Assembly (NCBI GenBank): GCA_944371435.1
Contig: CALVXQ010000003.1
Location: 1 to 33,135, forward strand
DNA: 33,135 nucleotides
Direction of reading: 5' to 3'
Source: an uncultured Bacilli bacterium
GTDB taxonomy: Bacteria; Bacillota_I; Bacilli_A; RF39; UBA660
Shown here: positions 2,005-20,890 of the stretch, piece after piece
How positions within the stretch are numbered: position 1 is the first letter of the stretch
Layout of the letters: every line of letters begins with the position of its first letter
The notes under the pieces: generated by a model
Told to the model about the DNA's origin: nothing
What the model saw: the letters and a program-made list of their open reading frames with translations, nothing else
Databases searched by the model: none
Position numbers and translations under genes: made by a program

Positions 2005-2009
2005 ATCAC

Positions 2010-3410
2010 CTAAAATCTAAAATATAAAAATGGATTAAAAGAAGCATCTATTAAGAAAGCAGTTATAATAATTAAAAGTAACATACTACCACTTATTTCT
2101 AAGAAAGAACCTATATAACGTAGTTTTGGTTTACTAAAGATTTTTTGCCAATATTTTACAACTGGAGTAGCAAAAATAATACCACATAATAAAACAACTA
2201 AATAACTTCTTAAATAATATATAGTACTAAAGTTACTAAATGGTAAGTTATTAAAGCCAAATATACTCTTTAAGAATACAACAATTTCACTTAAACTCTC
2301 AGAGTTAAAAATAATAAAACTTATTAAAACTAAGAAAAGGGTATAAATATGACTAAATATGCGATGCTTATCTAAGAAATCTTTTAATAAATATTTTTCT
2401 ATTATTAAAAGAATACCAAAATATACGCCCCAGATAATAAAATTCCAAGCAGCTCCATGCCAGAATCCTGTTAAGAACCAAACAATAAATATATTTCTAA
2501 TATGTTTTAAAATTCCTTTGCGACTACCACCTAGAGGAATATAGACATAATCTCTAAAAAAGCTAGATAAAGAAATATGCCATCTACGCCAAAAATCAGT
2601 AATACTTTTAGCAATAAAAGGATAATTAAAATTTTCTAAGAAATGGAAGCCAAACATTTTTCCTAAACCAATAGCCATATCACTATAGCCTGAAAAATCA
2701 AAGTATATCTGAAGAGTCTCACTTACTGCTATTATTAAATAAGTTAAGATTGCTTTATCTGGTATATTACCTAATAAAGATACTAAAGAACCTAACTCAT
2801 TGGCTATTAATACTTTTTTAGCTAGACCAATAATAAATCTGATTACTCCACTTCCAAATTCATCAAAACTACATTTTCTTTTCTTTAATTCATCATCGAT
2901 ATCACTATATCTGACAATCGGACCAGCAATTAATTGAAAAAATAAAGAAACATATGTACAAAAATCGATAAGATTTTTACTTGCTTTTACCTTATTAGTA
3001 TAAACATCAACAACATAACTCAAAGTTTGAAATGTAAAAAAGCTAATTCCGATTGGCATTACAATATTTAAAAAGGGAATATTAGTATTAAAAATATTAT
3101 TTATATTATCGATAAAAAAGTTAAGATATTTAAAATACATAAGAAGTCCAATATTAGTTACAATAGCAGTTATAAAAACAATCTTAGCTAATTTTTTGTT
3201 ACGATATTTATCTATTAATAAACCGTAAATGAAATTCATTAAACATGATAATAATAAGATAATTAGAAATTTACCCTCCCCATAAAAGTAAAAAAATAAA
3301 CTACTTATTAACAAACATAAATTTTTAAATTTATTAGGAATTATAAAATAAATAATTAATACTATAGGCAGAAAATAGTATAGAAATGTTATACTTGAAA
3401 AAACCATCAT
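2010..3410 (-). CDS. MBOAT family O-acyltransferase (AlgI/DltB/PatA-like)
   Basis: PIGISFFTFQ, QIYFDFSGYSDMAIG, FWRRWHISLS, TGFWHGA catalytic His, multiple TM helices. Confidence 0.95.
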   Translation of the reverse strand: MMVFSSITFLYYFLPIVLIIYFIIPNKFKNLCLLISSLFFYFYGEGKFLIILLLSCLMNFIYGLLIDKYRNKKLAKIVFITAIVTNIGLLMYFKYLNFFIDNINNIFNTNIPFLNIVMPIGISFFTFQTLSYVVDVYTNKVKASKNLIDFCTYVSLFFQLIAGPIVRYSDIDDELKKRKCSFDEFGSGVIRFIIGLAKKVLIANELGSLVSLLGNIPDKAILTYLIIAVSETLQIYFDFSGYSDMAIGLGKMFGFHFLENFNYPFIAKSITDFWRRWHISLSSFFRDYVYIPLGGSRKGILKHIRNIFIVWFLTGFWHGAAWNFIIWGVYFGILLIIEKYLLKDFLDKHRIFSHIYTLFLVLISFIIFNSESLSEIVVFLKSIFGFNNLPFSNFSTIYYLRSYLVVLLCGIIFATPVVKYWQKIFSKPKLRYIGSFLEISGSMLLLIIITAFLIDASFNPFLYFRF

Positions 3411-3441
3411 TTACCTCCAAAAAAAAGTCTTCACAAGAAGA

Positions 3442-3900
3442 CTATAAATTTTTAAAATTATTCAATATTTTATCAGCAGTATCATTTGAAGCCATAATTA
3501 GAATTATAACATCATCGTTACTATCAACGATTACTTTTTCTGCTTCAACACATACCCATTTAGCTGGATTAACATTGTCTTTTATCTCTTGTTTAGCTTG
3601 TTCTATATCAACGCCATCAGCTACTCTTAAGACAACAACTGAATGGGCAATCGAACTTATTAATGGTTCTGATGCGATTGCTTCTTTAAAATCAATAGTA
3701 TCAACACCTAAATAATAAGCCATATTATCTTTAGTAATTTGCGTATTATTTAAACTTGGTAGTTCATCTTCGCCAAAGCCTTCATAAACCTTAGCAAGTA
3801 TATCTTCTAAGGACATATCTAAAGTTTCTTTTTTACCACAGCCAGTAAGAACTACTAGTAAAGCACTAAATACTAAAAATATGCTAAAAATCTTTTTCAT
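3442..3900 (-). CDS. Lipoprotein, probably DUF4358 family
   Basis: Lipobox LTGC. First gene of the MBOAT-DHHW operon, where DUF4358 proteins are typical. Confidence 0.65.
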   Translation of the reverse strand: MKKIFSIFLVFSALLVVLTGCGKKETLDMSLEDILAKVYEGFGEDELPSLNNTQITKDNMAYYLGVDTIDFKEAIASEPLISSIAHSVVVLRVADGVDIEQAKQEIKDNVNPAKWVCVEAEKVIVDSNDDVIILIMASNDTADKILNNFKNL

Positions 3901-3918
3901 ACTTCAACCTCCTACGGC

Positions 3919-3947
3919 ATTATACTATTGCTGATTATTATTTGCAA
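3919..3947 (-). promoter_or_regulatory. Sigma-A promoter of the lipoprotein-MBOAT-DHHW operon
   Basis: TTGCAA-N17-TATAAT on the minus strand, followed by an AGGAGG RBS. Confidence 0.7.
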
Positions 3948-3955
3948 GTAAAAAT

Positions 3956-4225
3956 TTATCTTTGTTTTTTACTATACATTTCATCATAAATAGAATCTAG
4001 GTAACTAGCTTCTTCTAAAGTTTTACAGTCAATAGCAAATTTAGAAAGATATAAACCAGTATTTAATTTTACCTGTAACTTATCTATAGCCATTTTAAGA
4101 ATTCTGATACGATTAGAAATGGTTCCAAACTCTTCTAAATCAGCATTATTTTTATATCTTTCGAATTCACGAGATAATATTTCTGATAAAAATATTATTT
4201 GTTTTTCTATTTCTTGCATATCCAT
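3956..4225 (-). CDS. Hypothetical small helical protein
   Basis: ORF. ATG at 4225 is preceded by GAAGGAAGGA. No recognisable motif. Confidence 0.65.
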   Translation of the reverse strand: MDMQEIEKQIIFLSEILSREFERYKNNADLEEFGTISNRIRILKMAIDKLQVKLNTGLYLSKFAIDCKTLEEASYLDSIYDEMYSKKQR

Positions 4226-4330: not shown

Positions 4331-5578
4331 ATGCAAGAAAGAAATATCCTTTGTATCGATTTAAAAAGTTTTTTTGCCTCCGTTGAATGTCTAAAAAGAA
4401 AAATAGATCCTTTTAAAGTTAATTTAGTAGTAGCTAATCCTAAACAAGGTCAAGGTGCTATTACCTTAGCAGTTACCCCACATTTAAAAAGTCTAGGCGT
4501 TAAATCAAGGGGACGTTTATATGAGATACCTAAAGAAGTTAAATATATAATTGCAGAACCTCATATGGCTTCCTATATTGAGTATAGTAAAAAAGTAGTT
4601 AATATCTACTTGAATTTTGTAGCCGAAGAAGATTTACATATTTATTCAATCGATGAATGTTTTCTTGATTTAACTAATTATTTGAAACTGTATAATAAAA
4701 CTGATTATGAAATAGCACAAGACATTTTAAATACTATTTATAATGAAACTGGATTAACTGCTACCTGTGGAATTGGTCCTAATATGTTATTAGCTAAAGT
4801 AGCTATGGATACAGAAGCTAAGAAGTATAAAAATGGGATTGCAAAATGGACTTATGCTGATGTTAAAACTAAATTATGGAGTATTAATCCTTTATCTAAA
4901 ATGTGGTCAATCGGGCCACGAATGGAAAAAAGATTAAATGGCTTAGGATTATATACGATTGGCGATATTGCTAATTATGATAAAAACAAATTAAAAGATA
5001 AATTTGGGGTTATTGGCGAAGAATTATGGTTACATGCTAATGGAATTGATAACTCAGTAATTAGTGATTGGAAAGAAGCACCTAAAGATTTAAGCTATTC
5101 CCATTCACAAGTGCTATTCAAAGATTATAATGGCAATAACATAAGATTAATAATTACGGAAATGGTTGAAGTAATTACTAAAAGATTAAGAGAAAATCAT
5201 AAACAAACAGGTTTAATTGGTCTTAATATTGGGTATTCTAAGAATATTGGTGGTGGTTTCTATCACTCTATAAAAACAGTACCTACTAAATCTTCACGAG
5301 AAATTCTTAGAGTCTGTTTAAATATATTTGATAGATATTATACTAATTTACCAATTAGAAAAGTTAGTATCGTAGCCGGAAGATTAACTGATGATGATTC
5401 TTTTCAACTAAATTTATTTGAAGATTATAACAAAATTGTCGAAGATAATAAATTAAATGAAACAATCGATGAAGTTAAAAATAAATATGGTAAAAATAGT
5501 ATTCTAAAAGCTTCAGCTTTATTAGACGACTCCACTGCTATCGAAAGAAATAAAAAGATAGGAGGTCATAATGCCTAA
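4331..5578 (+). CDS. Y-family translesion DNA polymerase (ImpB/MucB/SamB; UvrX/YqjW-like)
   Basis: IDLKSFFASVE, YSIDECFLD, GIGPNMLLAK, QLNLF clamp-binding motif, C-terminal IGGHNA. Confidence 0.95.
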   Translation: MQERNILCIDLKSFFASVECLKRKIDPFKVNLVVANPKQGQGAITLAVTPHLKSLGVKSRGRLYEIPKEVKYIIAEPHMASYIEYSKKVVNIYLNFVAEEDLHIYSIDECFLDLTNYLKLYNKTDYEIAQDILNTIYNETGLTATCGIGPNMLLAKVAMDTEAKKYKNGIAKWTYADVKTKLWSINPLSKMWSIGPRMEKRLNGLGLYTIGDIANYDKNKLKDKFGVIGEELWLHANGIDNSVISDWKEAPKDLSYSHSQVLFKDYNGNNIRLIITEMVEVITKRLRENHKQTGLIGLNIGYSKNIGGGFYHSIKTVPTKSSREILRVCLNIFDRYYTNLPIRKVSIVAGRLTDDDSFQLNLFEDYNKIVEDNKLNETIDEVKNKYGKNSILKASALLDDSTAIERNKKIGGHNA

Positions 5579-7542: not shown

Positions 7543-10500
7543 ATGATAGATAATATAATTAAAGATTTAAACAATATTATAGAATATACAATATATAAAG
7601 ATATTAAACTAGATTCAGAAATGCAAAACAAATTAGATAATATTATTATATATATGAATAATAGTAAAAATATAATTAAAGATTTAAATAGTATTATGGA
7701 AATTAAAAATAAAGAAAATAAAATATTTTTAGAAAGATATATTAGTATTATATTATCTAAAACTAACCTTTCTTTTTTAGATATTAGTAAAATTCTTAAA
7801 ACTAATATTTCTTTAAATATAAAATATATTTTATGGAATAAACTAAGTACTAGTAATAAAATAAATTATCTTCTTGCTAATAATATAGAAACTGACGATT
7901 TAACTCTAATAAATATTTCTTTAGATAATAAAAATACTAAGTTATATCATAATATAGTCAGTAATAAAGATATTTTAAAAAAATTAAAAAATATTACTCC
8001 TAATATTAATATCGTAAAAAAAGAAGATTTTGAAACAGAAGATATCTTAAAAGTAATTGATTCTAAGACAGTTAGTAAGTATATTATGAAATATTATTCT
8101 ACTTATAATAATTTTAAAAACTTAGTAATTAATAATAACAATATTATTAATTATGCTAATAAATATAGTATTAAGATAGATAAAATAGATAAAGAAGACT
8201 TAAACACTCTAGTAAAAGAATATCCTTTTATCATTACTAAATTAGATACTAAAATAAGTATTAATTATTTAACTAGCGAAACTTTAAAACAAATTTTAAA
8301 TAATAATAAAGATTTAGATATTACTAGTAGTGCTAAAGAATTATTAACTATTTTAGATTCTAATAATATTTATAAATATTTTAATTTAGACTTTGTTAAA
8401 CAACAAAAAGATTTTACGCTAAGTATCTATCCTTTTGCTAAACTAGATAATAACTTAACTAAAGAAATTATATATAACTATGATTTATTAAAGAAATTTA
8501 CTTATAATACTATTGTTACTATTATTAATAATTTATACATGGAAGAAATGAAAATAAGTCTATTTAGAAATAATAATTTTATCGAAGAAATCCCTAGTTA
8601 TTATTTAATTCAAATTTTAAATAATATGAACTTTAAAAACGTCTTTAATTTATTACAAAATATTAATTTATTAACTAAACTAGATAACTTAAATATTAAA
8701 TTAAATATTGAAGATAACTTATTTGTGGATAGTTACTTAGATTCTCCTACTCTAGTAAATATAAGTAATCCCAAAATGCTCTATAATATGCTTTTATTAA
8801 GTAATAATACTATAAAATATTTAGAATTTCCTTACTTAAATTCCCGTTTAAATATAGTAGATATAATAGATATCTTAGTTAATAAAAATATTAATATCTT
8901 TGATACTTCTTTATTAAAGTTATTTAAAACTTTAGAAATTAAAGATTATATTAATAAAATGCTAAAAACTTATCATATCAATTACGATTTATTATTAAAT
9001 GATTATGTTTTCCATAATATCTATAACTATAATAAAAATAAATTAACTAGTCTTGATTTAGATAATATAAAATATTTATTCGATAAAATATATACTAAGG
9101 GAATTAATACTTCGGCTTGTTATGCTATTGATATAGATTCTTTTAAAAGTATTTTAAATAGTTATATCCTATTAGGTTTTGATAATACTAATAAATTATT
9201 TGAAAATGGAACATATAATATTACTTTTAAAAATATTAATAGTTTAAAAAATATTTATGTAAAGAAATTTAAAAAAGACTTAAATTTATTAAGTGTTAAA
9301 AAAGTTACTAAACTATTTAGTAAATATTTAATAAAATTAGATAAAAATAGTAATGAAAATTTCTTAAGAAATTACTTATTAGATATACCAGAAATAAAAA
9401 GTTATCTTATGTTATTTAATAATACTAAATATTCTTCTCTTAAAGATACTACTAAATTATGTCTAAATTATTTAGATTATAGTAATTATAATAATGAAGT
9501 AGCTAACAATTTATTAACTAACTTTATTAAAGGATTTAATAGTTACTATAAAGATAAATGGATATTAGATTTAAAAAATAGATTTGATAAAATAACGATA
9601 AAATCTTCTTTAATAAGTACTAATATCTTATATCAAACAGAAAAAGTAATAGATCAAGATTATACAATTAAATATAAATTAGACTTATTTAAAAAATTTT
9701 TAAAAGCTAATAATAAAGATAATTATTCTAAATACTTTAATATTCCTTTAGATCAAGTAATAGTTAAATATTTAAAATATATTAAAACAAAAATAACTTT
9801 AGATGATTTAATAAACAAAGTTTTAATAGATACAGATATAAATACGATATTAAATAGTTTAAATATTAAAACACCAATTTTTTATAACTTATATAAAGAA
9901 ATTAAAAAAGAAGAAGAATTAATCAATAATTATAATATTATACTTAAAACTAAATTAAAGAATATGCATAGTACTAGAGTAATTACTATCTTAAATCATA
10001 TTTGTTATAATACTACTATTCCTTTTATAATAGATAATAAACTTAAAAAAATTATTAATGATTTAAAAAATAAAATAAGTTTATTTAATGGAAAAGTAGA
10101 TGTTAATAAACTAAATAATTCTTTAGAATATACTAATATATTTACATTTAATAATCTTAATGAACTGGAAGAATACGATTTAAAATACCAAAAAATTAAT
10201 GATATTTTAGAAAAAACGGATAAATTTGTTAATAAATATATTAATACTGAAGAAATAAAAGCTAAATATAAAGATTACTATAAATATTCTTTAGATACTT
10301 ACTTAAATATGATACCAGTTAATAAAAATTATTATTCTTTAAAAAGAAGATATTTATATTTAGAAGATTTTAAGAAAATATTTAATGGTTATGACTTATC
10401 TATTAATCATTATTTAAGTTCTACTACTAAATCTTTCTTAGTAAATAATCTAGTATATGTTGCTTTAGGTTATCTAGATGATTTTACTAATAACTTTGGT

Positions 10501-10566
10501 ACATCTTTAAATCATATTGATGATACAAAACTATACCATAATATCTATGAATTAGTTAGCAAATAA
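7543..10566 (+). CDS. Large hypothetical protein, Asn/Lys/Ile-rich, probably all-helical
   Basis: 1007-aa uninterrupted ORF in AT-rich DNA, 7 bp after the sortase stop with an AGGTG RBS. No signal peptide or motif recognised. Confidence 0.85.
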   Translation: MIDNIIKDLNNIIEYTIYKDIKLDSEMQNKLDNIIIYMNNSKNIIKDLNSIMEIKNKENKIFLERYISIILSKTNLSFLDISKILKTNISLNIKYILWNKLSTSNKINYLLANNIETDDLTLINISLDNKNTKLYHNIVSNKDILKKLKNITPNINIVKKEDFETEDILKVIDSKTVSKYIMKYYSTYNNFKNLVINNNNIINYANKYSIKIDKIDKEDLNTLVKEYPFIITKLDTKISINYLTSETLKQILNNNKDLDITSSAKELLTILDSNNIYKYFNLDFVKQQKDFTLSIYPFAKLDNNLTKEIIYNYDLLKKFTYNTIVTIINNLYMEEMKISLFRNNNFIEEIPSYYLIQILNNMNFKNVFNLLQNINLLTKLDNLNIKLNIEDNLFVDSYLDSPTLVNISNPKMLYNMLLLSNNTIKYLEFPYLNSRLNIVDIIDILVNKNINIFDTSLLKLFKTLEIKDYINKMLKTYHINYDLLLNDYVFHNIYNYNKNKLTSLDLDNIKYLFDKIYTKGINTSACYAIDIDSFKSILNSYILLGFDNTNKLFENGTYNITFKNINSLKNIYVKKFKKDLNLLSVKKVTKLFSKYLIKLDKNSNENFLRNYLLDIPEIKSYLMLFNNTKYSSLKDTTKLCLNYLDYSNYNNEVANNLLTNFIKGFNSYYKDKWILDLKNRFDKITIKSSLISTNILYQTEKVIDQDYTIKYKLDLFKKFLKANNKDNYSKYFNIPLDQVIVKYLKYIKTKITLDDLINKVLIDTDINTILNSLNIKTPIFYNLYKEIKKEEELINNYNIILKTKLKNMHSTRVITILNHICYNTTIPFIIDNKLKKIINDLKNKISLFNGKVDVNKLNNSLEYTNIFTFNNLNELEEYDLKYQKINDILEKTDKFVNKYINTEEIKAKYKDYYKYSLDTYLNMIPVNKNYYSLKRRYLYLEDFKKIFNGYDLSINHYLSSTTKSFLVNNLVYVALGYLDDFTNNFGTSLNHIDDTKLYHNIYELVSK

Positions 10567-10573
10567 TAAATAG

Positions 10574-10610
10574 AAAATAGCATCGATAAAAATTTTATTG
10601 GTGCTATTTT
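10574..10610 (+). terminator. Long hairpin terminator after the 1007-aa gene
   Basis: AAAATAGCATCGATAAA-aat-TTTATTGGTGCTATTTT (with G-U pairs). Confidence 0.7.
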
Positions 10611-10666
10611 ATGTTAATTACGCAACAAATATAAATTATGCTATAATCATTATTATAGGAGTATAT

Positions 10667-12646
10667 ATGATAAGGATTGAACATGTAAATAAAGTAATAG
10701 ATAATAAATGTATTTTAGAAGATATTAATTTAACTTTACCCGATACTGGCTTTATTTTAATAAAAGGCGATAATGGTGCTGGTAAATCAACTCTTCTTAA
10801 TTTAATTGGTGTTTTAGATAAACCTACATCAGGTAATATCTTTTATAATAATACAAATTTAACTTTATTAAATGAAGAAAAACTTACTACTTTTAGAGAA
10901 GAATATATAAGTTTTATTTTTCAAGATCCTAATCTATTTGCTAATTTTACAGCTTTAGAAAATATTAATATTACTAATAAAAATAATTTAAATGAAGTAA
11001 TTAATTTTTTAGATATTAAAGATTTATTAAATAAAAAAGCTAAAGTTTTATCTGGTGGTGAACAGCAAAGAATATCTATTGCTCGAGGTATTCTTAAAGA
11101 CTCTCCTGTTTTACTCGCAGATGAACCAACTGGTGCACTTGACTTAGAAATGAAAACTAATCTTTTTAGTTATCTAAAAAAAATAAGTAAAGAAAAACTA
11201 GTAATTATTATTAGTCATGATACAAATTTAGCTTCCTTTTTAGCCGATATGATTATTGAAATAGATAATGGAAAAATAATTAATATTATTAATAAAAATA
11301 ATTTTTTAGAAGAAAATCATAAACATATTTATCATAATCAGTTTAAGGCATTAAATTTTACTTTAAAAAATTTATATCAAAATAAAGTAAGACTTATTTT
11401 TAGTAGTTTTATTCTAATAATTACATTATATTTATTATGGTTATCTACTTCTTTATCTAGTTTAAATTATAATAAAATACATGAAGATACGATGAATTTA
11501 GAAAATGATACTTTATTTATATTTAATAAAAATAATGCTCCATTTTTTAACGATGAAGATGTTACTTATCTTAAAAATACTATTAACCAAGACCTTATTA
11601 TAGGAAAATTATTAGTTTTCAATTCTAATTTTTTTGTTAATAATATATATAAAAGACCTAATCTTTATTTATCTATTATCCCAATCAATAACTTTACTTA
11701 CTTTGATATATCATACTTAAAACACGTTGATTATGGAAGATATCCAACAAAAGATAATGAAATCGTTATTAGCTCTTATTTAGCTGATTTAGCAATTCAT
11801 GATGGAATTTTATTAAATGATGGTTTTATTTATAAACCTACTAATTATGAAGCTTTAGTTACCGAAAATAAGGAAATTGATTTAGGGGGTAAACCAGTAT
11901 ATATAGTCGGTATCTTTGATTTAGGACTAGAAGAACAATATGGATACCTAAAAGAAATAGATGATTATTATCATTTAACAACAAGACAAAAAGCTGAATA
12001 TTATATTTATGGTGATAAAGTATTAAATAATGCTGCTAATGTTTATGTTACAGACGGATTTTGGGATTACTTTAGTGATATCCCTAACAGTTATATTATC
12101 AATAAGAAAATATATACATATATAGAAGATAAACAGATTAGAGATGAAGTATTTGCTAATTTTCCTATCGAAGGTAGTGAATTTACAATTGCAACCAACT
12201 ATAGTCCAATTATTATTGCTTTAAAAGATTTAGTTAATAGATTTGTTGATATTTTTAAAGTAATATCTATTATACTAAGTATATTTACTATTCTATTACT
12301 AATCAATTACACCTTAAATAGTATATTTTTACATCAAAAAAATATTGCTATCTTAAAAAATTTAGGAATTAAAGAAAAACAAATTAATACTTTATTTATA
12401 ACGGAATTACTATTCCTAACTTTATTTAGTTTTATAATATCATTTATTCTCTTCTTAGTATCAAGACTTATAATTAATAATATAGCTAGTAACTTTATTA
12501 CTTTTAAAATCAATATTTTACCTATTAATATAATTAATATCTTAGCTATTTTCCTAGGCATTTTATTATTTATCTTCTTAGTATCTTTTATAATTAAAAA
12601 GAAAATAAAAAAACTTAGCCCTCAAAAAATATATAAAACAAATTAG
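10667..12646 (+). CDS. MacB-like fused ABC ATPase / FtsX-type permease (copy 1)
   Basis: Walker A GDNGAGKST, LSGGEQQR, LLADEPT, SHD. Topology is TM + large extracellular domain + 3 TM. ATG 10667 follows AGGAG and TGcTATAAT. Confidence 0.92.
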   Translation: MIRIEHVNKVIDNKCILEDINLTLPDTGFILIKGDNGAGKSTLLNLIGVLDKPTSGNIFYNNTNLTLLNEEKLTTFREEYISFIFQDPNLFANFTALENINITNKNNLNEVINFLDIKDLLNKKAKVLSGGEQQRISIARGILKDSPVLLADEPTGALDLEMKTNLFSYLKKISKEKLVIIISHDTNLASFLADMIIEIDNGKIINIINKNNFLEENHKHIYHNQFKALNFTLKNLYQNKVRLIFSSFILIITLYLLWLSTSLSSLNYNKIHEDTMNLENDTLFIFNKNNAPFFNDEDVTYLKNTINQDLIIGKLLVFNSNFFVNNIYKRPNLYLSIIPINNFTYFDISYLKHVDYGRYPTKDNEIVISSYLADLAIHDGILLNDGFIYKPTNYEALVTENKEIDLGGKPVYIVGIFDLGLEEQYGYLKEIDDYYHLTTRQKAEYYIYGDKVLNNAANVYVTDGFWDYFSDIPNSYIINKKIYTYIEDKQIRDEVFANFPIEGSEFTIATNYSPIIIALKDLVNRFVDIFKVISIILSIFTILLLINYTLNSIFLHQKNIAILKNLGIKEKQINTLFITELLFLTLFSFIISFILFLVSRLIINNIASNFITFKINILPINIINILAIFLGILLFIFLVSFIIKKKIKKLSPQKIYKTN

Positions 12647-12656
12647 AAAGGATTAT

Positions 12657-14969
12657 ATGATAAAACTAGTAAAAGTTAATAAATTAATTGTTAATAGAGA
12701 AATATTACGAAATATTAATCTTACTTTACCAGATACAGGATTAGTTGTAATTAAGGGAAAAAATGGTTCCGGTAAATCTAGTCTTCTAAATATAATTAGT
12801 GGGATAGATAATCCAAGTACTGGTAATATATATTATGATAATACTGATATAACTAAGTTAAATGAGGAAGATAAAAGAAAATTTAGAGAAAAATATATTA
12901 GTTTAGTATTTCAAAAACCTAACCTATTCTTAAATAGTAATGTAAATGATAATATTACTATTGTAAATGATGAAAAAAATATTAAAAAAGTTTTACAATT
13001 TTTTAATCTAGAAAACTTAAAAAAGACAAAAGTTAAAAAGTTATCGGGTGGCGAAAAAGAAAAAGTTGCTTTAGCAAGAGGCTTAATCAAAAAATGTCTA
13101 GTACTTTGTCTTGATGAACCTACTTCTAATTTAGATACTAAGACTAAAATTGATTTATATAGATACTTAAAGAATATATCTAAACATAAATTAGTAATTA
13201 TGGTATCTCATGATTCTTTAAGTGAAGAATATGCTGATATAATAATTAACATGCAAAATGGCGAAATAGAAAAGATTATTAATAAAAATACTATGCAAGG
13301 GAAACTAGAATTTATCTCTCATAAGAATAATTTTAATAGTATAAAATTTGTTATTCATAATCATTTTACTAATAAAATTAAATTAATTTTTAATAGTATT
13401 CTCTTAATCTTTATTTTTACTATTATTATCTTATTTTTATCTTTAAAAAATATAAATATAGTCGATTTACACACTAGTTCTCTTGCGTTAGAAAAAGATA
13501 GTATAATGATTTTTAATAAGCAAAATTATAGTAGTGTTTTTGCAGATAATTATTTTAATGAAGATGATATAACTTATCTAAATAATAATAAAATATCTAA
13601 AAATAATTTAATTATTGGTAAAAATATTTTTTATAATAATAGTCTTCTTAATTTTACATATGTAAATCGTCTAGATTATCTCTATGATCCGGTTGAAAGA
13701 TTAACCTTTATCGATATAAAAGATTTAGCAAATGAGATAATTGGTAAATTACCAGAAAAATCTAATGAAATTGTAATAAGTTCAACTTTAGCAGATATTA
13801 TGGGTAAATACGGAGTTAAAACAAGTTTAAATACTGATTATTACCCTGGTAGTTATGAAGAATTTATAAACAGTGATTTCTTTCTATTATTAGGTAATCA
13901 AGAAGTTAAAGTAGTAGGTATTTATTTATTAGATGAAGAAAAATATAGTGATTTAAAAGATAATAAGATATCTTCTTTTAAAGAAAATATCTTAAGAAGA
14001 TTATACACTGACTTTTTATATTGCTATGCCGGAAATATATATGTTACTAGTGATTTCTTCAATTTATTTAATACGCCAAAGAATAGTATAAATCCCTTTA
14101 ATTCCTTTATCATCCTACCTAAAGGTTCGAATATAACAGGAACTTTACTACCATTTAATGAAGGAATGAGCGTTGAAGTATCTGATGGAAGAATAATTAC
14201 GGAATTACAAGAGAATGAAATTATCGTAAATCAAGATATGTTAAATTCATTATTATTAGATGATGTAAATAGTATTGGTAGAGAAATAAATATAGAAATT
14301 GAAGATTATATTACCAAACAAAAGTATAATTATCATTTAACTATAGTAGGAATGTCTAATGATGAAAATTATTATATTAATTCTAATACTTTAAAAGGTT
14401 TACTGACTAATACTTTTTTTACTAATAAATTATTTATAAAAGAAGATAATGAAAATACTATTCATAATATGTTAATAAAATTTGCTAAAGATAGTAATTC
14501 TGATTATTATCTAACAAGTAATTATTCTAATGTTATTGAAGATTTAACTGTTCTTACTACAATTATTAGTTTTATATTTAAATACTTATTACCTATCTTT
14601 GTTATATTATCAATTATTTTATTAATAAATTATATCTATAGTAGTATTAAAATACATCAAAAAGATATCGCAATCTTAAAAAGTTTTGGCATAAGTAATA
14701 ATAAAATAAACTTATTATTCATCGAAGAATTAGGAATTATATCTTTTATAGCCTTAATAATTTCTTTAGTAATATTTTTGATTATTAAATTTATTATAAA
14801 TTATATAGCCTATACGATTTTAGCTTTTAAAATAAATGTTTTACCATTAAATATCTTTAGTCTTATTATTATATTTTCGATTATTCTAGGAATAATTATA
14901 ATAACGATTTTAATAAGTCAAAGAAAAACTAAAAAACTTAGTCCAGAAATTATTTTTAAAATAAATTAA
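12657..14969 (+). CDS. MacB-like fused ABC ATPase / FtsX-type permease (copy 2)
   Basis: GKNGSGKSS, LSGGEKEK, LCLDEPT, SHD. Same architecture and clearly paralogous to copy 1. Confidence 0.92.
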   Translation: MIKLVKVNKLIVNREILRNINLTLPDTGLVVIKGKNGSGKSSLLNIISGIDNPSTGNIYYDNTDITKLNEEDKRKFREKYISLVFQKPNLFLNSNVNDNITIVNDEKNIKKVLQFFNLENLKKTKVKKLSGGEKEKVALARGLIKKCLVLCLDEPTSNLDTKTKIDLYRYLKNISKHKLVIMVSHDSLSEEYADIIINMQNGEIEKIINKNTMQGKLEFISHKNNFNSIKFVIHNHFTNKIKLIFNSILLIFIFTIIILFLSLKNINIVDLHTSSLALEKDSIMIFNKQNYSSVFADNYFNEDDITYLNNNKISKNNLIIGKNIFYNNSLLNFTYVNRLDYLYDPVERLTFIDIKDLANEIIGKLPEKSNEIVISSTLADIMGKYGVKTSLNTDYYPGSYEEFINSDFFLLLGNQEVKVVGIYLLDEEKYSDLKDNKISSFKENILRRLYTDFLYCYAGNIYVTSDFFNLFNTPKNSINPFNSFIILPKGSNITGTLLPFNEGMSVEVSDGRIITELQENEIIVNQDMLNSLLLDDVNSIGREINIEIEDYITKQKYNYHLTIVGMSNDENYYINSNTLKGLLTNTFFTNKLFIKEDNENTIHNMLIKFAKDSNSDYYLTSNYSNVIEDLTVLTTIISFIFKYLLPIFVILSIILLINYIYSSIKIHQKDIAILKSFGISNNKINLLFIEELGIISFIALIISLVIFLIIKFIINYIAYTILAFKINVLPLNIFSLIIIFSIILGIIIITILISQRKTKKLSPEIIFKIN

Positions 14970-16803: not shown

Positions 16804-16880
16804 GTCTCCATAGCTCAGCTGGATAGAGCATACGCCTTCTAAGCGTACGGTCGAGTGTTCGAATCACTCTGGGGACACCA
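16804..16880 (+). tRNA. tRNA-Arg (anticodon TCT)
   Basis: Acceptor stem GTCTCCA/TGGGGAC, D arm AGCTCAGCTGGATAGAGC, anticodon arm TACGC-CTTCTAA-GCGTA, T loop GTTCGAATC, encoded CCA. Confidence 0.97.
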
Positions 16881-16889
16881 GGAGAAATT

Positions 16890-16916
16890 AAAGGGCTTAA
16901 TAGGCTCTTTTATTTT
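16890..16916 (+). terminator. Terminator after tRNA-Arg
   Basis: AAAGGGCTT-aat-AGGCTCTTT followed by a T-rich tract. Confidence 0.7.
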
Positions 16917-16981
16917 AATCTTCAAATTATTAAATAATTAAAGATTCACATGGTGCTTACTAATATAACTTGTGATATTTA

Positions 16982-17057
16982 AATGCACCATCATAGGGCA
17001 AAATTGGGTCTCAAAACAGCAAAAATGCACAATTTTTTTAAAATATTGTGCATTTTT
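16982..17057 (+). repeat. 76-bp direct repeat, copy 1 (upstream of fic)
   Basis: AATGCACCATCATAGGGCAAAATTGGGTCTCAAAACAG...AAAAATGCACAAT...ATATTGTGCATTTTT; matches 18162-18237 at 72 of 76 positions. Confidence 0.95.
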
Positions 17058-17095
17058 ATATTTATTTTGTTATAATTTAACTAGAGGTGAACAAA

Positions 17096-18163
17096 ATGGA
17101 AATAGTAAAACTTAATGAATTACCTATTAATTATAATATGGATAAGGAGTTATTACGTTTACTTGCAGATGCTAATGAATTATATGGGGAGTATAAATCA
17201 AAATTAAAAAACAGTAAAATAAATTCTAAACTTTTTTTAGATTCCCTTATTTTAAAAGAAAGTTTTAAATCAACACAAATTGAAGGAACTCAAATCTCGC
17301 AAGATGATATATATTATTTAAAATACATGCCTAAAACAGATGAAAACTTGGAAATTCAAAATTTAAAAATGGTAATTGATTATGCTAAAAACTATTTAAA
17401 TGAAAATGATAAAATAAATTTGGAATTTGTAAATGAAATTCATAAAATTCTCTTAAATAGCGTTCGCGGTAATGAAAAAGAACCAGGTAAAATACGCAGT
17501 ATTCAAAACTGGATTGGTCCAAATGGATGTACAATTGAAGAGGCAAGCTATATCCCTCCAGCACCAGAAAAAGTACCGCTTTTACTAGATAATTTATTTA
17601 AATATATGAATGATTTATATATAGATCCCCTATTTATAAATATGGCTATTTCTCATTGCCAATTCGAATCAATTCATGCTTATAGAGATGGTAATGGAAG
17701 ATTAGGTAGAGCTTTAATTCCAATCCAATTGGCTGCTTTAACAAATGAAGAACCTATTTTATTCTTATCAGAAATTATAGAGCTTTATAAACCTACTTAT
17801 TATCGCTTATTAAATGAAAGTCGTAATGGAAATATATTAGGATTTATTAAATTCTTTTTACAATGTATTATAGAACAATGCAATAACTATATATATAAAA
17901 TAAATCGAATTGAACAAATATATGAAAAAAATAATGAGAAAATAAAAGTATTAAAAAGTAGTGCTGTATATCAAATAATGCCTATTATTACAAAATTAGT
18001 AATTTTTACTAAAAAGGAAATAGAAGATGAATCTAAATTATCCAGAAATACAGTCTCTAGAATTATTGATAAATTAGTAGAACTTAATATTTTAGTTCCT
18101 GATACTAATCACACAAAACTTGGTTATCGTTACCAAGATATATACAATGTATTTATCAAATAA
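17096..18163 (+). CDS. Fic family protein (class II, N-terminal inhibitory helix, C-terminal HTH)
   Basis: STQIEG (S/TxxxEG), Fic motif HAYRDGNGRLGR, C-terminal TKKEIEDESKLSRNTVSRIIDKLVELNIL winged HTH. ATG 17096 follows GAGGTG and TGtTATAAT (alternative start GTG 17087). Confidence 0.93.
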   Translation: MEIVKLNELPINYNMDKELLRLLADANELYGEYKSKLKNSKINSKLFLDSLILKESFKSTQIEGTQISQDDIYYLKYMPKTDENLEIQNLKMVIDYAKNYLNENDKINLEFVNEIHKILLNSVRGNEKEPGKIRSIQNWIGPNGCTIEEASYIPPAPEKVPLLLDNLFKYMNDLYIDPLFINMAISHCQFESIHAYRDGNGRLGRALIPIQLAALTNEEPILFLSEIIELYKPTYYRLLNESRNGNILGFIKFFLQCIIEQCNNYIYKINRIEQIYEKNNEKIKVLKSSAVYQIMPIITKLVIFTKKEIEDESKLSRNTVSRIIDKLVELNILVPDTNHTKLGYRYQDIYNVFIK

Positions 18164-18237
18164 TGCACCATCATAGGGCAAAATTGGGTCTCAAAACAGT
18201 AAAAATGCACAATATTCTAAAAATATTGTGCATTTTT
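18162..18237 (+). repeat. 76-bp direct repeat, copy 2; its hairpin doubles as a bidirectional terminator for fic/scpB
   Basis: Fills the whole gap between the fic stop and the scpB stop. Palindrome AAAAATGCACAATATT...AATATTGTGCATTTTT. Confidence 0.95.
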
Positions 18238-18824
18238 TAAACAGCAACCTCTTCGGAAGTAGGATTTTCTTTATATATAGATTGAAATAAATCTTTATCA
18301 TCAGTTTCTACTTCCTTAGTAGGTAACTTAGGTAAATCATTTAAAGTAGCTAAACCAAAGTAATCAAGAAAATCACTAGTAGTTCCATACAAATTAGGTC
18401 TACCAGGCATTGTTGATTTACCAACTTCTTTAACTAAGCCTTTAGCAACTAATTTTCTAATTACCCAAGAATTATTAACACCTCGCATCTCATCTACTTC
18501 AGCCCTTGTTATTGGCTGATGATAGGCAATAATAGCTAATGTTTCCAATGCTGATTGCGATAAGGTATTAGTTTCAGGATTGACTATTAATTTTTCATAA
18601 TATTCTTTATGTTCTTTCTTAGTAGTTAACTTAAAGGCATTTCCTAAATAACTAATTCTTATCCCCCTTTTAACATCTTCATAAGATTTTTTTAACTCCA
18701 TAAGTAATTCTTTAGCTTCATCCATTGTTATTTCTAAAATATTACATATCTGTTCTAAAGTTAATCCTTCATCACCAACAACAAATAATAACCCTTCTAA
18801 AACAGCAACTTTATCATCCTTCAT
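18237..18824 (-). CDS. scpB: SMC-Scp complex subunit ScpB
   Basis: LEGLLFVVGDEG, LSQSALETLAIIAYHQPITRAEVDEMRGV, GRPNLYGTT. Confidence 0.96.
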   Translation of the reverse strand: MKDDKVAVLEGLLFVVGDEGLTLEQICNILEITMDEAKELLMELKKSYEDVKRGIRISYLGNAFKLTTKKEHKEYYEKLIVNPETNTLSQSALETLAIIAYHQPITRAEVDEMRGVNNSWVIRKLVAKGLVKEVGKSTMPGRPNLYGTTSDFLDYFGLATLNDLPKLPTKEVETDDKDLFQSIYKENPTSEEVAV

Positions 18825-19545
18825 TTAATACACCTTCTACTATAATCGGACTATAACTATTTTCTTGAAATATCTTTAACTCTTTATTCTTACTCATCTG
18901 TAGTATGGCTAAAAATGTTACAACGATATACTCTCTATTAATAGTATCAAATAAACTAAAAAACTCTACACGTTTTTTATTTTGAATAATCTTTTTAATC
19001 GAAGTTATTCTATCTTCAATACTTAATTCTTTTTTAGTAATTTTAGTATTAAGAGGCTTTAAAAACTTAGCTCTTTTTTGATACTCCAAGAAAGCTTGAT
19101 ATAAGTCATCAGTCGTAAATAACCCTTTAGTTAATTTATTATCTTTAGCATAAATCTTTAAATTTTCCGGAACTTTAGTAAATACTTCACTTCTTTTTTC
19201 TTCTAAATCTTTAAAAGTATTAGTTATATTTTTTATCTCTTCATACTCGATTAATTTATTTCTTAAATCCTCTTCACTTGTTATACTATATTCATCAGCA
19301 GTATCCTCTTCATCTTTCCTATTAACTAATAAACGGGCTTTTAAATTAACTAATTCAGCAGCCATTACTAAATAACTAGAAGCAATATCAATATTTAAAG
19401 ATTCAAAATTATTAATAATATTAAGATATTGATCAATTATTTCTTTTAAATTAATTTCATAAATATCCATTTTGGATTGCTTAACTAAATGTAAAAGAAG
19501 ATCTAAAGGACCTTCAAAATCATTAATATGAAAATTATAATCCAT
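18814..19545 (-). CDS. scpA: Segregation/condensation protein ScpA (kleisin)
   Basis: FEGPLDLLLHL, YLVMAAEL, IVVTFLAILQM. ATG 19545 follows GAGGGGG. Confidence 0.96.
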   Translation of the reverse strand: MDYNFHINDFEGPLDLLLHLVKQSKMDIYEINLKEIIDQYLNIINNFESLNIDIASSYLVMAAELVNLKARLLVNRKDEEDTADEYSITSEEDLRNKLIEYEEIKNITNTFKDLEEKRSEVFTKVPENLKIYAKDNKLTKGLFTTDDLYQAFLEYQKRAKFLKPLNTKITKKELSIEDRITSIKKIIQNKKRVEFFSLFDTINREYIVVTFLAILQMSKNKELKIFQENSYSPIIVEGVLNEG

Positions 19546-19561
19546 AATTTTCCCCCTCTTT

Positions 19562-20890
19562 TTAATGGCAAGTAAAACCAAGAGATTCTATTTCATAATT
19601 TAAGACATCTTTACTAGTATCCTTCTTATAATAATATATATCTTCTCCTGTTAAATCAACATCAGTAGTATAATTAATAGTAGCAGTATAAGTAAAACCA
19701 GTATCGATTGCTAAGGCATTAGCAGTTGCAATTCCACTTTCTTCAACACGCAATGCTTTAGCTTGATAATTTAAGAAATTAACAGTATAACTATTATCAT
19801 CAACCTTAATATAGTTATAATTATCTCTAATACTTACTAACTTATTATCTTGAAAAGTATAAGTTAAAGTACGATTAGGAGCCTCACAAGTAATTACTGT
19901 ACCTAATTCAGATATAGGATAATCTGATACATTACGATTTACTACTTGAAAAGAATTAGCATTAGTATAAATAGATTCATCAATAGGACTTTGCATCGTT
20001 GTAGTACCACCAGCACCTAAATTATCAATATTAATTAAAGCTCGTCCTAAATATGTATTATCTTGATAAAAATCAATATATACTCGATTAGTAGCAAAAT
20101 CAAAGCCATTCTGAGTATCAATATTCTTAAGTGTATAATTAAAATAATATGTATTATTAGCCATAGTCTTGGAAACATTGCTAATTTCTATATTCTCATA
20201 TTTGGCTATTACTGTTGGATCAATTAAATATGTTTCGATAACAGGTTCTTCTGGTAATGGTTCCTCTTCCTCATCATCAGGTAAAGATGGAGTTGGTACT
20301 TCTTCTAAAACCTCAGAATTATCACTTATATTTAACTTACTTAATAAATCACTAAAATAAGGAGTTATCTCCGGAATAAAAAATATTGTTGCGATTAAAA
20401 CAGTAAATAGTATTACCATTGCTAAAGGACTCTTTTGCTTATCCTTCTTAATCTTACCAATACTTTTACTAGCTAAAGCTGGTTCTTCTGGAATGGTACC
20501 AGTTGGCGTTGCCGGAGATACATTAGGATTAGCTTGCACATTAACATTAGGTTGAGGAGTTTGAACTTGAGATGGCACTGGTTGTTTTGGAGCAGCCATT
20601 CCATTATTTAAAGTGTTATTCTCATTTAATTGATTACTTAAATCTGCCTGATTAAAAAATGTATTATGATTAGGTTGAGGAGAACTATTTTTTAAAGCTG
20701 GTATATCCGGTTTTGCTTCTACTGGGGGAGTAGTTTTATCTTCACCAAGATTTCCCAATATTTTAGGAGTATTTAATTCTTCCACTTTTTTGGGTTCTTC
20801 TTTTTTTTCTTCCTCCTTAGAAACTGGTGTTTCTATCTTACGTCCCCATATATCTGTATTTACATTATCACTAGGATTATTGTTATTCAT
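19562..20890 (-). CDS. Bitopic membrane protein with Pro/Asn/Gln-rich disordered N-terminus and extracellular beta-rich domains
   Basis: Low-complexity aa 1-150, TM after KIKKDKQK, acidic Pro linker, then FNYTLKN..YIDFYQDNTYLG (FxLYD/Ig-like appearance). Confidence 0.8.
   Translation of the reverse strand: MNNNNPSDNVNTDIWGRKIETPVSKEEEKKEEPKKVEELNTPKILGNLGEDKTTPPVEAKPDIPALKNSSPQPNHNTFFNQADLSNQLNENNTLNNGMAAPKQPVPSQVQTPQPNVNVQANPNVSPATPTGTIPEEPALASKSIGKIKKDKQKSPLAMVILFTVLIATIFFIPEITPYFSDLLSKLNISDNSEVLEEVPTPSLPDDEEEEPLPEEPVIETYLIDPTVIAKYENIEISNVSKTMANNTYYFNYTLKNIDTQNGFDFATNRVYIDFYQDNTYLGRALINIDNLGAGGTTTMQSPIDESIYTNANSFQVVNRNVSDYPISELGTVITCEAPNRTLTYTFQDNKLVSIRDNYNYIKVDDNSYTVNFLNYQAKALRVEESGIATANALAIDTGFTYTATINYTTDVDLTGEDIYYYKKDTSKDVLNYEIESLGFTCH

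Follow-up and report, generated by a model that had tools for sequence, protein, structure and literature searches.

We find a SoFic-type Fic gene of a small, uncultured gut bacterium of the Bacilli to be bracketed by two copies of a conserved palindromic element, here named E, and we consider it fairly probable that E belongs to this gene as its operator and terminator and also acts as a recombination substrate, the whole forming an islet that lacks an integrase. Defence systems of a single gene, SoFic among them, have a patchy distribution; here a 76-nt element at one or both ends of the Fic gene marks the points of precise deletion, and perhaps of re-insertion, in units without a recombinase of their own.

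Layout of the locus

The window, the whole 33,135-nt stretch of contig CALVXQ010000003.1 that was analysed, comes from a metagenome-assembled genome (MAG; G000) of 1.0 Mb in 102 contigs, 89% complete. Repeat search identified one 76-nt direct-repeat family, its two copies 95% identical (72/76) and 1180 nt apart from start to start (Table 1); the runner-up in the 5.5-kb region spans only 40 nt at 70%, so the pair is not due to chance. These are the only copies of E in G000. The sister species G005 has the same two copies, again 1180 nt apart, and Logan contigs from an independent study (run X5) span each junction, one covering copy 1 with both flanks (16896-17341) and another copy 2 (18119-18774); the bracket is therefore not an assembly artefact.

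The first base of copy 2 is the second of the fic stop codon (TAA, 18161-18163), and its last is the first of the minus-strand scpB stop codon (18237-18239). The end of copy 1 is followed after 10 nt by an extended -10 box (TGtTATAAT), then by AGAGGTG and an ATG at 17096, which is probably the true start codon, rather than GTG 17087, because orthologues begin MEP or MKP. Orthologous loci show the same promoter/RBS layout after E. The first-pass annotation had described the repeat pair with its four differences, its abutment on both stop codons and on the fic promoter, and its distinctness from the tRNA 3' end; all of this is borne out, E starting 101 nt beyond the end of tRNA-Arg. The genes fic and scpB are convergent, and the sole terminator available to them is hairpin 2 of copy 2 (18201-18237); copy 2 gives a minus-strand terminator call with a 17-pair stem and fold energies of -21.7 and -23.8 kcal/mol (z-scores -5.4 and -6.0).

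The left side of the locus is variable. Homology of G005 and G003 to G000 stops at about 16916-16918 (blastn). Where G000 has a 58-nt filler, G005 carries a 2.3-kb two-gene ABC transporter, and in G003 52 nt with their own terminator replace everything up to scpB.

Table 1. Features of the Fic locus in the window
Feature	Position	Strand	Basis and remarks
tRNA-Arg(TCT)	16804..16880	+	Left landmark of variable spot; ARAGORN; Rfam tRNA 66.7 bits
tRNA-Arg terminator hairpin	16890..16910	+	Terminator scan; common to G005 and G003
58-nt filler, G000 only	16917..16974	.	blastn of G000 vs. G005 and G003
E copy 1	16982..17057	+	Repeat search; CM R1 97.1 bits; RNA fold -18 kcal/mol, z -2.95
fic promoter and RBS	17068..17089	+	Extended -10 TGtTATAAT 17068-17076, AGAGGTG 17083-17089; read from sequence
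Fic gene, 355 aa	17096..18163	+	Pfam Fic_N and Fic; PADLOC SoFic; PDB 3EQX, 7XUX
E copy 2	18162..18237	+	Overlaps fic stop and scpB stop; hairpin 2 at 18201-18237
scpB, right landmark	18237..18824	-	Pfam SMC_ScpB 3.3e-56
scpA, next after scpB	18814..19581		Pfam SMC_ScpA 8.9e-33

Sequence and structure of E

E is made of two palindromes built from the half-site TGCAC(AAT), giving four half-site copies at fixed spacing. In copy 1, hairpin 1 (about 16984-17000) is degenerate and is followed by an 18-19-nt spacer; hairpin 2 is a 37-nt palindrome (17021-17057) between A and T runs and is, by its sequence, a bidirectional intrinsic terminator. The spacer between the hairpins measures 18-19 nt in 113 of 114 E copies, and in all 114 there are 11 nt between the half-sites of hairpin 2 (CACAAT to ATTGTG), with variable sequence there. 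Arm positions are identical in 95-98 of the 98 distinct copies, and these 98 copies have no excess of covariation (0.026 vs. 0.023 when shuffled, a value reached by 67 of 500 shuffles). Given the invariant arms, the fixed spacings and the lack of excess covariation, E appears to be constrained in its sequence and not in pairing alone. No Rfam family reached threshold for E, the top hit, STnc240, scoring 29.1 bits where 55 are required, and in three related loci only tRNA and tmRNA were found. The genome scan of G000 found no E-like palindromes elsewhere that might form a regulon.

The Fic protein

The gene product is predicted to be a class II Fic AMPylase with a SoFic-like, winged-helix-like C-terminal domain. 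The PADLOC SoFic profile (PDLC03963) matches near full length, residues 10-355 aligning to profile positions 12-357 of 361 (346/361; E 9.2e-86), but the NCBIfam SoFic equivalog model NF046030 scores 89.5 bits, below its curated cut-off of 550, so this Fic is a distant member of the family and not an equivalog; SoFic itself is from Shewanella (PDB 3EQX). Pfam Fic_N covers residues 23-101, and the inhibitory-helix motif S59-T-Q-I-E-G64, invariant in orthologues, lies in the same chain, as in class II. The active-site motif is H194-A-Y-R-D-G-N-G-R-L-G-R205, of which H194-A-Y-R-D-G-N-G-R202 is invariant in 12 orthologues; relative to the consensus given as HPFx[D/E]GN[G/K]R (PMC2686095), A takes the place of P and Y that of F, and the His, Asp, Asn and Arg are retained. 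Pfam names no HTH domain in the protein. The match to the SoFic structure, which was deposited as 'FIC domain containing transcriptional regulator', runs from 147 to 335 through the C-terminal domain, and a putative recognition helix contains R317-N-T-V-S321.

Toxicity of Sofic has been reported, as has its action against phage as a one-protein defence (PMC12249575), and the wild-type gene resisted cloning behind one lac operator (section 2.1 of that report). From this toxicity we would expect SoFic-type Fic genes to need tight control. The E. coli SoFic has a separate small antitoxin (PMC12249575), whereas an AS1-like small gene after fic is ruled out here, with just 76 nt between fic and scpB. 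No flanking repeats around SoFic are described in the accessible parts of the literature found.

Distribution of E

Pattern scans of public data gave 145 distinct loci, 74 of them from genomes and 71 from metagenomes. Three states predominate, E-Fic-E (25), E-Fic (32) and solo E (72); the other 16 loci have truncated or decayed Fic genes, plus three E-X-E arrangements with different cargo. SoFic-type Fic-HTH genes preceded by E are found in many gut Bacilli MAGs, with E preceding the Fic start by 29-53 nt at all but one of the 37 full-length genome-scan loci (the exception being L092, with 89 nt). Among 150 other genera sampled from the family, CM R1 detects E in 18, never at more than one locus per genome. 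Eight of these 18 genera have solo E and no orthologous Fic (G025, G066, G075, G132, G137, G161, G163, G187), with a lower average score; the lower scores fit slow decay, and a Fic-independent function could also explain why such copies persist.

Cargo other than Fic lies between E copies in one lineage (L176, L215, L223), and L087 has the arrangement E-[two genes]-E-Fic. The other cargo and multi-cassette arrays that the first-pass annotation had envisaged come down to that one E-X-E lineage and the extra segment of L087, genomes having a single locus each. A three-E "array" in L138 was not counted: its third copy contains an N run and repeats the flank of copy 2, and may be a scaffolding product.

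E often starts 0-8 nt past the stop codon of the preceding gene, and CACCA occurs within 70 nt upstream of E in 42 of 142 loci, against 4.5% of background windows. The E-Fic unit had no blastn match in phage and plasmid collections; three matches in IMG/VR are each close to a contig end and therefore represent host flank or prophage-end cargo.

Loss, gain and movement of the module

In five lineages, flanks that are 86-99.8% identical enclose, at one and the same site, E-Fic-E in some strains and a single E in others, which shows precise loss or gain at E. In one such comparison (L218 vs. L086) the solo E follows the upstream copy, E_up, as far as the hairpin 2 loop and then joins the flank of the downstream copy, E_dn; E_up of this pair resembles E_up of related Fic modules, which identifies the solo E as a deletion product. 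The empty site with a single repeat that the first-pass annotation had proposed thus exists in five other lineages but not in the clade of G000 itself: no solo-E strain was found there, and the empty site of G003 lacks E and has a different terminator instead. An exact-pattern scan of metagenome contigs for E of the G000/G005 type returned 0 stretches. Logan contigs of four runs, which cannot show rare forms, contained no joint skipping the 1180 nt and no circle junction.

The deletion junction falls within the 3' part of hairpin 2 in all four informative lineages, in two of them with only 17 nt of shared identity; under uniform crossover, the chance of this placement is roughly estimated at about 0.01-0.05. 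Such clustering hints at a site-specific or structure-driven process over plain RecA recombination.

E copies within a genome resemble each other more than they do copies elsewhere: E_up/E_dn identity averages 0.90 within genomes (n=16) and 0.80 between them (n=117), and 9 of the 16 within-genome pairs exceed the highest between-genome value, 0.896. The two copies match at 72/76 in G000 and 75/76 in G005, and at about 68/76 between the two genomes. This is concerted evolution, and the copies of one genome are probably homogenised by gene conversion.

A second E in direct orientation makes the pair a recombination substrate. E x E recombination removes the promoter, fic and one E and leaves a solo E, as shown in relatives; in the reverse direction, an E-Fic circle of roughly 1.2 kb might enter a resident E. 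The simplest candidate drivers would be host homologous recombination or hairpin-stimulated slippage. Solo E could serve as a practical marker of sites from which the defence gene was lost.

The module also occurs in unrelated surroundings. Modules of about 1.32 kb that are 93-97% identical share no other similarity over their 5-kb loci, and they follow tRNA-Thr, tmRNA (Rfam 156.6 bits) or protein genes. Within the genus, the module lies at tRNA-Thr in G009 and at scpB in G000 and G005, and the tree does not place their Fic proteins as sisters. Judging by these sequences, the module has apparently changed its place among tRNA, tmRNA and gene-end sites. Its bounds in some clades are tRNA-end repeats, in the manner of a cis-mobilizable element: (i) in L085, the tRNA-Leu end plus a linker is repeated at both module ends; (ii) in the G009-type module, the left boundary directly adjoins the CCA end of tRNA-Thr or tmRNA, and the right boundary is formed by a tRNA-like piece of roughly 75 nt that also ends in CACCA. 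The whole module is, in our reading, a tiny, patchily distributed defence islet without an integrase.

A stronger version, which we put forward only tentatively and think improbable as a whole, gives E a dual use, as toxin operator and as recombination site of a self-flanked cassette that cycles between E-Fic-E, a circle of ~1.2 kb and solo-E landing pads, driven by a structure- or site-specific activity at the 3' arm of hairpin 2 that the Fic DNA-binding domain possibly recruits. If true, this would be a new route for single defence genes between tRNA, tmRNA and gene-end sites.

E as a probable operator of fic

E is most likely the operator and terminator of fic itself, comparable to the arrangement at CccR of Yersinia pseudotuberculosis, and a recombination substrate as well. 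The C-terminal domain of Fic, a putative DNA binder, would bind the half-sites of E and autoregulate the promoter just after it, and hairpin 2 would insulate the toxic gene, in G000 terminating both fic and scpB.

CccR is a dimeric class II Fic protein with a C-terminal HTH, by means of which it represses its own promoter at two inverted repeats with 26 bp between them (PDB 7XUX); the inner half-sites of the two palindromes of E are turned towards each other with about 24-25 nt between them by our own count. The CccR inhibitory motif S59ARIEG is comparable to S59-T-Q-I-E-G64 here, and the profile match of the 7XUX chain to Fic (3e-14) is confined to the Fic part (positions 49-275). There are also differences: CccR is a T6SS effector of a proteobacterium, and its site is close to the -35 and -10 boxes, the end of E being mostly just upstream of the -35. 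The parts of the CccR literature available make no mention of an operator repeat downstream of cccR.

Further evidence comes from six Fic orthologues at 34-64% identity. In four of them (G033, G171, G082, G172) the scan found a palindrome with altered half-sites in the same place, that of G172 sitting further upstream, and the other two (G182, G167) have imperfect palindromes only, read by eye. The fixed distance of E to the Fic promoter, together with these altered palindromes at distant orthologues, fits a cis-regulatory element better than a generic attachment site. The putative recognition helix changes from SRNTVS to HIN(T/S) in these distant orthologues, a co-variation of half-site and helix that counts as a single independent contrast. 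Should the C-terminal domain of Fic bind E, CccR-type autoregulation would extend to the SoFic defence family, and there would be a simple explanation for the silencing of a toxic AMPylase.

A point against the operator reading is the position of E at most loci: its end lies a few nt upstream of a -35-like TTTACA and thus outside the core promoter, an unusual place for a repressor site.

Recombinases and alternative explanations

G000 encodes four tyrosine and five large serine recombinases, all elsewhere in the genome and the tyrosine ones on other contigs. Look-alikes of these nine occur within 2.5 kb of E at none of the 145 loci, which extends the first-pass observation that no recombinase is nearby. 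An IS200/IS605-type hairpin-ended element was rejected, as its Y1 transposase (PF01797) has 0 matches in G000, an absence that an 89% complete genome leaves unproven.

E might nonetheless be the attachment site of a dedicated site-specific recombinase acting in trans, the cassette system that the first-pass annotation had put forward, in which hairpin 2 is the core (two arms of roughly 11 nt and a 7-nt centre), hairpin 1 is accessory, and E-Fic circles are excised and inserted. Such a site would suit the invariant arms around a centre that varies in sequence and never in its 11-nt length, the junctions in the 3' half of hairpin 2, the three states at the same sites, the lineage with other cargo and the E-[two genes]-E-Fic arrangement, the frequent position of E right after the stop codon of the upstream gene, and the presence of nine recombinases in G000. 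We nevertheless regard it as unlikely. The cargo is Fic in all but one lineage, at a single locus per genome; the palindrome diverges together with distant Fic orthologues, unexpected for a generic site; the empty site of G003 has no E; modules of other clades are bounded by tRNA-end repeats and not by E; no locus has a linked recombinase, nor was a Y1 transposase found in G000; and E is not dif-like.

A weaker case can be made for E as a structured small RNA of ~75 nt, consisting of two hairpins and a terminator of its own, that controls the Fic toxin as in type III toxin-antitoxin systems. The order at type III loci is RNA antitoxin, terminator, toxin. A similar order of structured element, strong terminator (at the end of E) and toxin gene is seen here, a TATA(A/T)-like box is often visible by eye 2-7 nt upstream of E, and the separate small antitoxin of the toxic E. 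coli SoFic has no counterpart. Yet E matches no Rfam family and shows no covariation, and the sequence upstream of it is unconserved, with E often at the preceding stop codon, making a dedicated promoter doubtful in such AT-rich DNA; we think this explanation improbable. The least credible alternative, a one-off local duplication or assembly artefact, which the first-pass annotation had itself kept in view, might be suspected from just two copies in a fragmented MAG, but is excluded for practical purposes by the independent contigs across each junction and by recurrence of the bracket in G005, at another 15 loci of the genome scan and at 9 from metagenomes, the different contexts numbering at least 12.

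Returning to E as operator, terminator and recombination substrate of fic, we compared the unit with known mobile systems. The first-pass annotation had called it an integrase-less gene cassette of integron-type layout. The cassette part of this holds to the extent that the repeats are recombination substrates and the bracket is present at 25 of the 145 loci. As in integron cassettes, there is one ORF with a palindromic site at its stop codon, no internal recombinase, and presence or absence by recombination. The integron part does not hold: the unit has its own promoter, near-invariable Fic cargo and one locus per genome in place of an array, no integrase or attI lies beside it (0/145 loci), and the site diverges along with the cargo gene.

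Xer-dependent elements (IMEX, pdif modules) also lack an integrase and have short palindromic flanking sites with conserved arms and a short centre, on which host recombinases act. A dif-type site would be expected once per chromosome, at the terminus, wherever Xer occurs. A dif or IMEX site was rejected: 132 of the 150 genera lack E, no skew switch coincides with E (GC skew being negative at either end of the window), and E has a second palindrome and a fixed spacer.

CIMEs, described as integrase-less islets that retain attL and attR at the ends of tRNA genes, are similar in that direct repeats are kept in G000 with no recombinase in the unit or within 2.5 kb, and L085 and modules of the L068/L116 type have tRNA-derived end repeats. 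No related ICE or IME with an integrase for the module was identified. In G000, by contrast, the repeats are E and not the end of the target tRNA, and the unit is just 1.2 kb with one gene.

The bracketed fic gene

The fic gene of G000, the source genome, lies between two 76-nt direct repeats, here called E (E_up before and E_dn after Fic), which are identical at 72/76 positions and spaced 1180 nt apart; no other direct repeat within the 5.5 kb around them does better than 40 nt at 70%. The first-pass annotation had described just such a pair differing at four positions, and its layout of tRNA-Arg, copy 1, promoter, fic and copy 2 at the fic and scpB stops is borne out by reading the sequence: copy 2 opens within the fic stop codon and reaches, with its final nucleotide, the first position of the scpB stop codon, which is read from the opposite strand. 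By Pfam the gene neighbours are SufU/SufS on the left and ScpB/ScpA on the right. G000 is a 1.0-Mb MAG of 102 contigs (26.5% GC, 89% complete), and these are the only two E copies in it. An assembly artefact, a threat raised in the annotation, is ruled out because the sister species G005 (ScpB 89% identical) has this Fic gene between two E copies with an identical spacing of 1180 nt, and because contigs from another study's run cover each copy plus both flanks.

Coordinates of features in the window and in two related loci
Feature	Sequence	Position	Remark
Large-ORF island	window	7543-14969 (+)	1007, 682 and 770 aa
tRNA-Arg(TCT)	window	16804-16880	
tRNA-Arg own terminator hairpin	window	16890-16910	
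E copy 1	window	16982-17057	direct repeat, 76 nt
fic extended -10 box TGtTATAAT	window	17068-17076	10 nt past end of copy 1
fic RBS, then ATG start	window	ATG at 17096	downstream of extended -10
E copy 2	window	18162-18237	direct repeat, 76 nt
442-aa ORF	window	19562-20890 (-)	immediately upstream of scpA
ABC-transporter genes	L015 (G005)	1763-4030	231 and 522 aa; tRNA-Arg to E copy 1
Truncated Fic after E	L017 (G018)	4629-4830	cut at ~40 codons

Two other features of the window stand out. The three very large ORFs have a GC of 0.16-0.21 against 0.25-0.30 in surroundings that otherwise code on the minus strand, and the last encodes a fusion of an ABC ATPase with an FtsX-type permease. The 442-aa ORF has no Pfam or NCBIfam match, and an ORF of equal length stands upstream of scpA in G005.

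Anatomy and constraint of E

E consists of a short palindrome of consensus TGCACAAT-g-ATTGTGCA (degenerate in G000), a spacer of 18-19 nt and a 37-nt near-perfect palindrome, A5-TGCACAAT-11 nt-ATTGTGCA-T5 (hairpin 2). On both strands the latter has a folding energy between -18 and -24 kcal/mol (z -3 to -6), and a terminator scan picks it up on the strand of scpB. Among 98 distinct E copies, 95-98 agree at each arm position, with the loop and spacer variable; covariation in these copies is not above shuffles (0.026 vs 0.023, 67/500 shuffles as high). The lengths within E stay constant while loop and spacer sequences differ: in a scan permitting 16-22 nt, the spacer is 18 nt in 50 copies, 19 nt in 63 and 20 nt in one, and the inner gap of hairpin 2 is 11 nt in 114/114. 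Neither the fixed spacer nor the fixed gap is required by an ordinary terminator. No other palindrome with the E half-site occurs anywhere in the G000 genome. Partial tandem E copies (hairpin 1 with the spacer, or just hairpin 2) are present in L071, L072, L092, L108 and L113, and slippage between two internal AAATGCACAAT words would yield them.

Distribution and locus states

Of 150 other genera in the family, 18 have E by a covariance model trained on seven copies, and no genome has it at more than one locus. An exact-pattern scan of the genomes of 185,579 species gave 95 stretches, from which 80 loci were fetched and, after removal of 6 overlapping duplicates, 74 distinct loci retained, nearly all from MAGs of uncultured gut Bacilli. 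The 93 stretches found by a metagenome scan correspond to 71 distinct loci, many of them from lineages already among the genome loci, which makes the sets non-independent. E is tied to SoFic-type Fic genes, and the bracket recurs; the repeat is a real member of a conserved family.

Locus states (X, cargo other than Fic)
State	Genome loci	Metagenome loci
E-Fic-E	16/74	9/71
E-Fic	21/74 (Fic full-length; next ≥150 nt downstream free of E)	11/71
Fic cut by contig end	4/74	
Internal Fic remnant beside E	5/74	
Partial Fic		4/71
Solo E	28/74	44/71
E-X-E without Fic		3/71

L107, counted as solo E, has a Fic-like gene (33% identical) nearby. Eight E-positive genera are without any orthologous Fic in the genome; their E scores are lower on average (47-88 bits, vs 72-98 for Fic-linked copies), which fits slow decay after gene loss without proving it. 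All three E matches in the viral collection IMG/VR (L258-L260) lie close to a contig end (within ~2.5 kb) and represent either host flank or prophage-end cargo; Fic adjoins E in two of the three.

The Fic protein and a possible operator

By its Pfam domains (Fic_N + Fic) the protein belongs to the class II Fic proteins. It matches the PADLOC SoFic model over almost its whole length (9.2e-86), it falls well short of the threshold for the NCBIfam SoFic equivalog (89.5 bits vs 550), and its PDB matches are 7CB8, SoFic 3EQX, reaching through the C-terminal domain, and 7XUX, the Fic-HTH autorepressor CccR of Yersinia pseudotuberculosis. Across 12 orthologues there is no change in the inhibitory-helix motif S59TQIEG64, the active-site motif H194AYRDGNGRLGR205 or the C-terminal stretch RNTVS. 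PMC12249575 describes class 2 "Sofic" proteins as single-protein anti-phage systems, the wild type being too toxic for cloning behind one lac operator.

E lies 29-53 nt upstream of the start codon at all full-length Fic loci except L092 (89 nt), and is followed there by a -35-like TTTACA and then an extended -10 box. CccR, likewise of class II and with an HTH at its C terminus, gives an experimental precedent: according to PMC9755527 it represses its own promoter through two inverted repeats 26 bp apart. In E, the facing inner half-sites of its palindromes are ~24-25 nt apart. Among six genomes with distant orthologues (34-64% identity), four have, by scan, a palindrome with A and T runs that precedes the gene, the half-sites being changed to TGCACT, TACACAAT or ATACACA; its position is that of E in G033, G171 and G082, and further upstream in G172. 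The other two (G182, G167) show only imperfect palindromes, read by eye, as were cognate half-sites directly past the stop codon in G171 and G172. In the clade with a half-site that has lost its G, HIN(T/S) replaces SRNTVS as the putative recognition helix, a co-change that counts as one independent contrast only.

We infer that E is the operator-plus-terminator of a toxic Fic gene, with the Fic protein as its putative binder. The Fic-less genera are a less comfortable point for this reading. The "integron-type" label of the first-pass annotation did not hold up, and E is better seen as part of the Fic gene. A literature search, covering listings and selected sections of papers, found no published description of repeats flanking SoFic genes.

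Loss at E and history of the two copies

Comparison of 500-nt flanks across all loci found 95 pairs sharing both flanks, 68 in the same state and 27 in different states. The differing pairs form five lineages in which E-Fic-E and solo E occupy the same site; presence and absence are precise at E. The single-repeat empty sites that had been predicted thus exist in these five other lineages. In G000's own genus the nearest empty site (G003) is without E.

Lineages with both states at one site
Lineage	E-Fic-E	Solo E	Identity
1	L076, L209, L225, L229, L235	L181, L185, L197	flanks 97-99.8%
2	L064	L103	
3	L218	L086	96.6%
4	L098	L075	
5	L203, L216	L196, L239, L182, L211, L242	

Assembler collapse of the repeat is ruled out as the source of solo E, because the paired copies of L218 and of L064 differ throughout their spacers, with a junction identity of only 17 nt. 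In 4/4 informative lineages solo E reads as E_up through the hairpin-2 loop and then as E_dn flank, which places the junction in the 3' arm. By a rough estimate uniform crossover would give such clustering in only ~1-5% of cases, so a structure-driven or site-specific step there is possible. The solo E of L086 is identical to E_up of L218, which resembles E_up of related Fic modules, and is therefore a deletion product, not a naive landing site. Fic loss probably proceeds via host recombination or hairpin-stimulated slippage, and re-insertion by a circle would be possible.

Within genomes, E_up/E_dn identity averages 0.90 (n=16), with 9/16 values above the top between-genome value of 0.896 (mean 0.80, n=117): copies within one genome are often homogenised. 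G000 and G005 differ at five spacer positions, each common to both copies of a genome. The pairs in L064/L120, L083, L141 and L072 are as unlike as unrelated E copies. Since bracketed and single-E states are intermixed on the Fic tree, repeated loss of the downstream E, or repeated gain, must have occurred.

Modules, sites and mobility

The tRNA-Arg/scpB gap is a variable spot, because its contents differ among G000, G005 and G003. G003 has tRNA-Arg, its terminator, a different bidirectional terminator and scpB; G005 has an extra 2.3-kb ABC-transporter pair between tRNA and E, the permease stop codon adjoining E. A search of the G000 genome found neither gene (the best match to the first, 33% identical, lies elsewhere; the second has none). 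G009 carries E-Fic at tRNA-Thr, and its Fic is not sister to those in the scpB-linked brackets of G000 and G005; the tRNA-Thr and tRNA-Leu loci of G000 have no E.

Near-identical modules occur in unrelated sites: units of ~1.32 kb share 93-97% identity (L116 vs L222, 95.4% over 1325 nt; L207 vs L222, 96.4%; L068 vs L116, 93.5%), the remainder of the loci being without detectable similarity. In this clade homology begins at the CCA end of tRNA-Thr(GGT) (L068, from G009), of tmRNA (L116, Rfam 156.6 bits; L207) or of tRNA-like fragments, and ends with a ~75-nt tRNA-like piece again terminating in CACCA. A second clade (L085 and relatives) has a tRNA-Leu end plus linker repeated on both sides. CACCA lies ≤70 nt upstream of E in 42/142 loci, mostly at 35-39 nt (background windows, 4.5%). 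This tRNA-end architecture is that of cis-mobilizable elements (CIMEs), which retain att repeats and have lost the integrase, as outlined in PMC5704250.

The tRNA-like piece, which is conserved but has no ARAGORN or Rfam call, lies ~70-80 nt past the Fic stop in L068 and recurs in L116, L135, L207, L222, L190, L099 and L126. It closes the G009-type module, sometimes also preceding it, and may be an att-type repeat of these islets.

G000 encodes four tyrosine and five large serine recombinases, all on other contigs, and look-alikes of the nine were found within 2.5 kb of E in 0/145 loci; there is no linked recombinase. The proposed "integrase-less cassette" is right in spirit. Other cargo, which the annotation proposed looking for, is limited to one lineage and an extra upstream segment in L087, Fic otherwise lying between the E copies. 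In that lineage (L176, L215, L223) the copies are 1466 nt apart around a 177-aa ORF that matches no family (best Pfam E 0.025) and a frame-broken gene on the other strand, an arrangement identical in three independent assemblies. Past a sharp breakpoint, the downstream part of L087 matches L064 at 98.6% identity. A third E in L138 was not counted, as it contains Ns and repeats neighbouring flank. In L017, unrelated sequence runs from the truncated Fic to the contig end. On the upstream side, at 2-3.5 kb and beyond a displaced tRNA 3' fragment, are genes for a 491-aa serine recombinase and a 297-aa product; an integrated element seems to adjoin the Fic module here.
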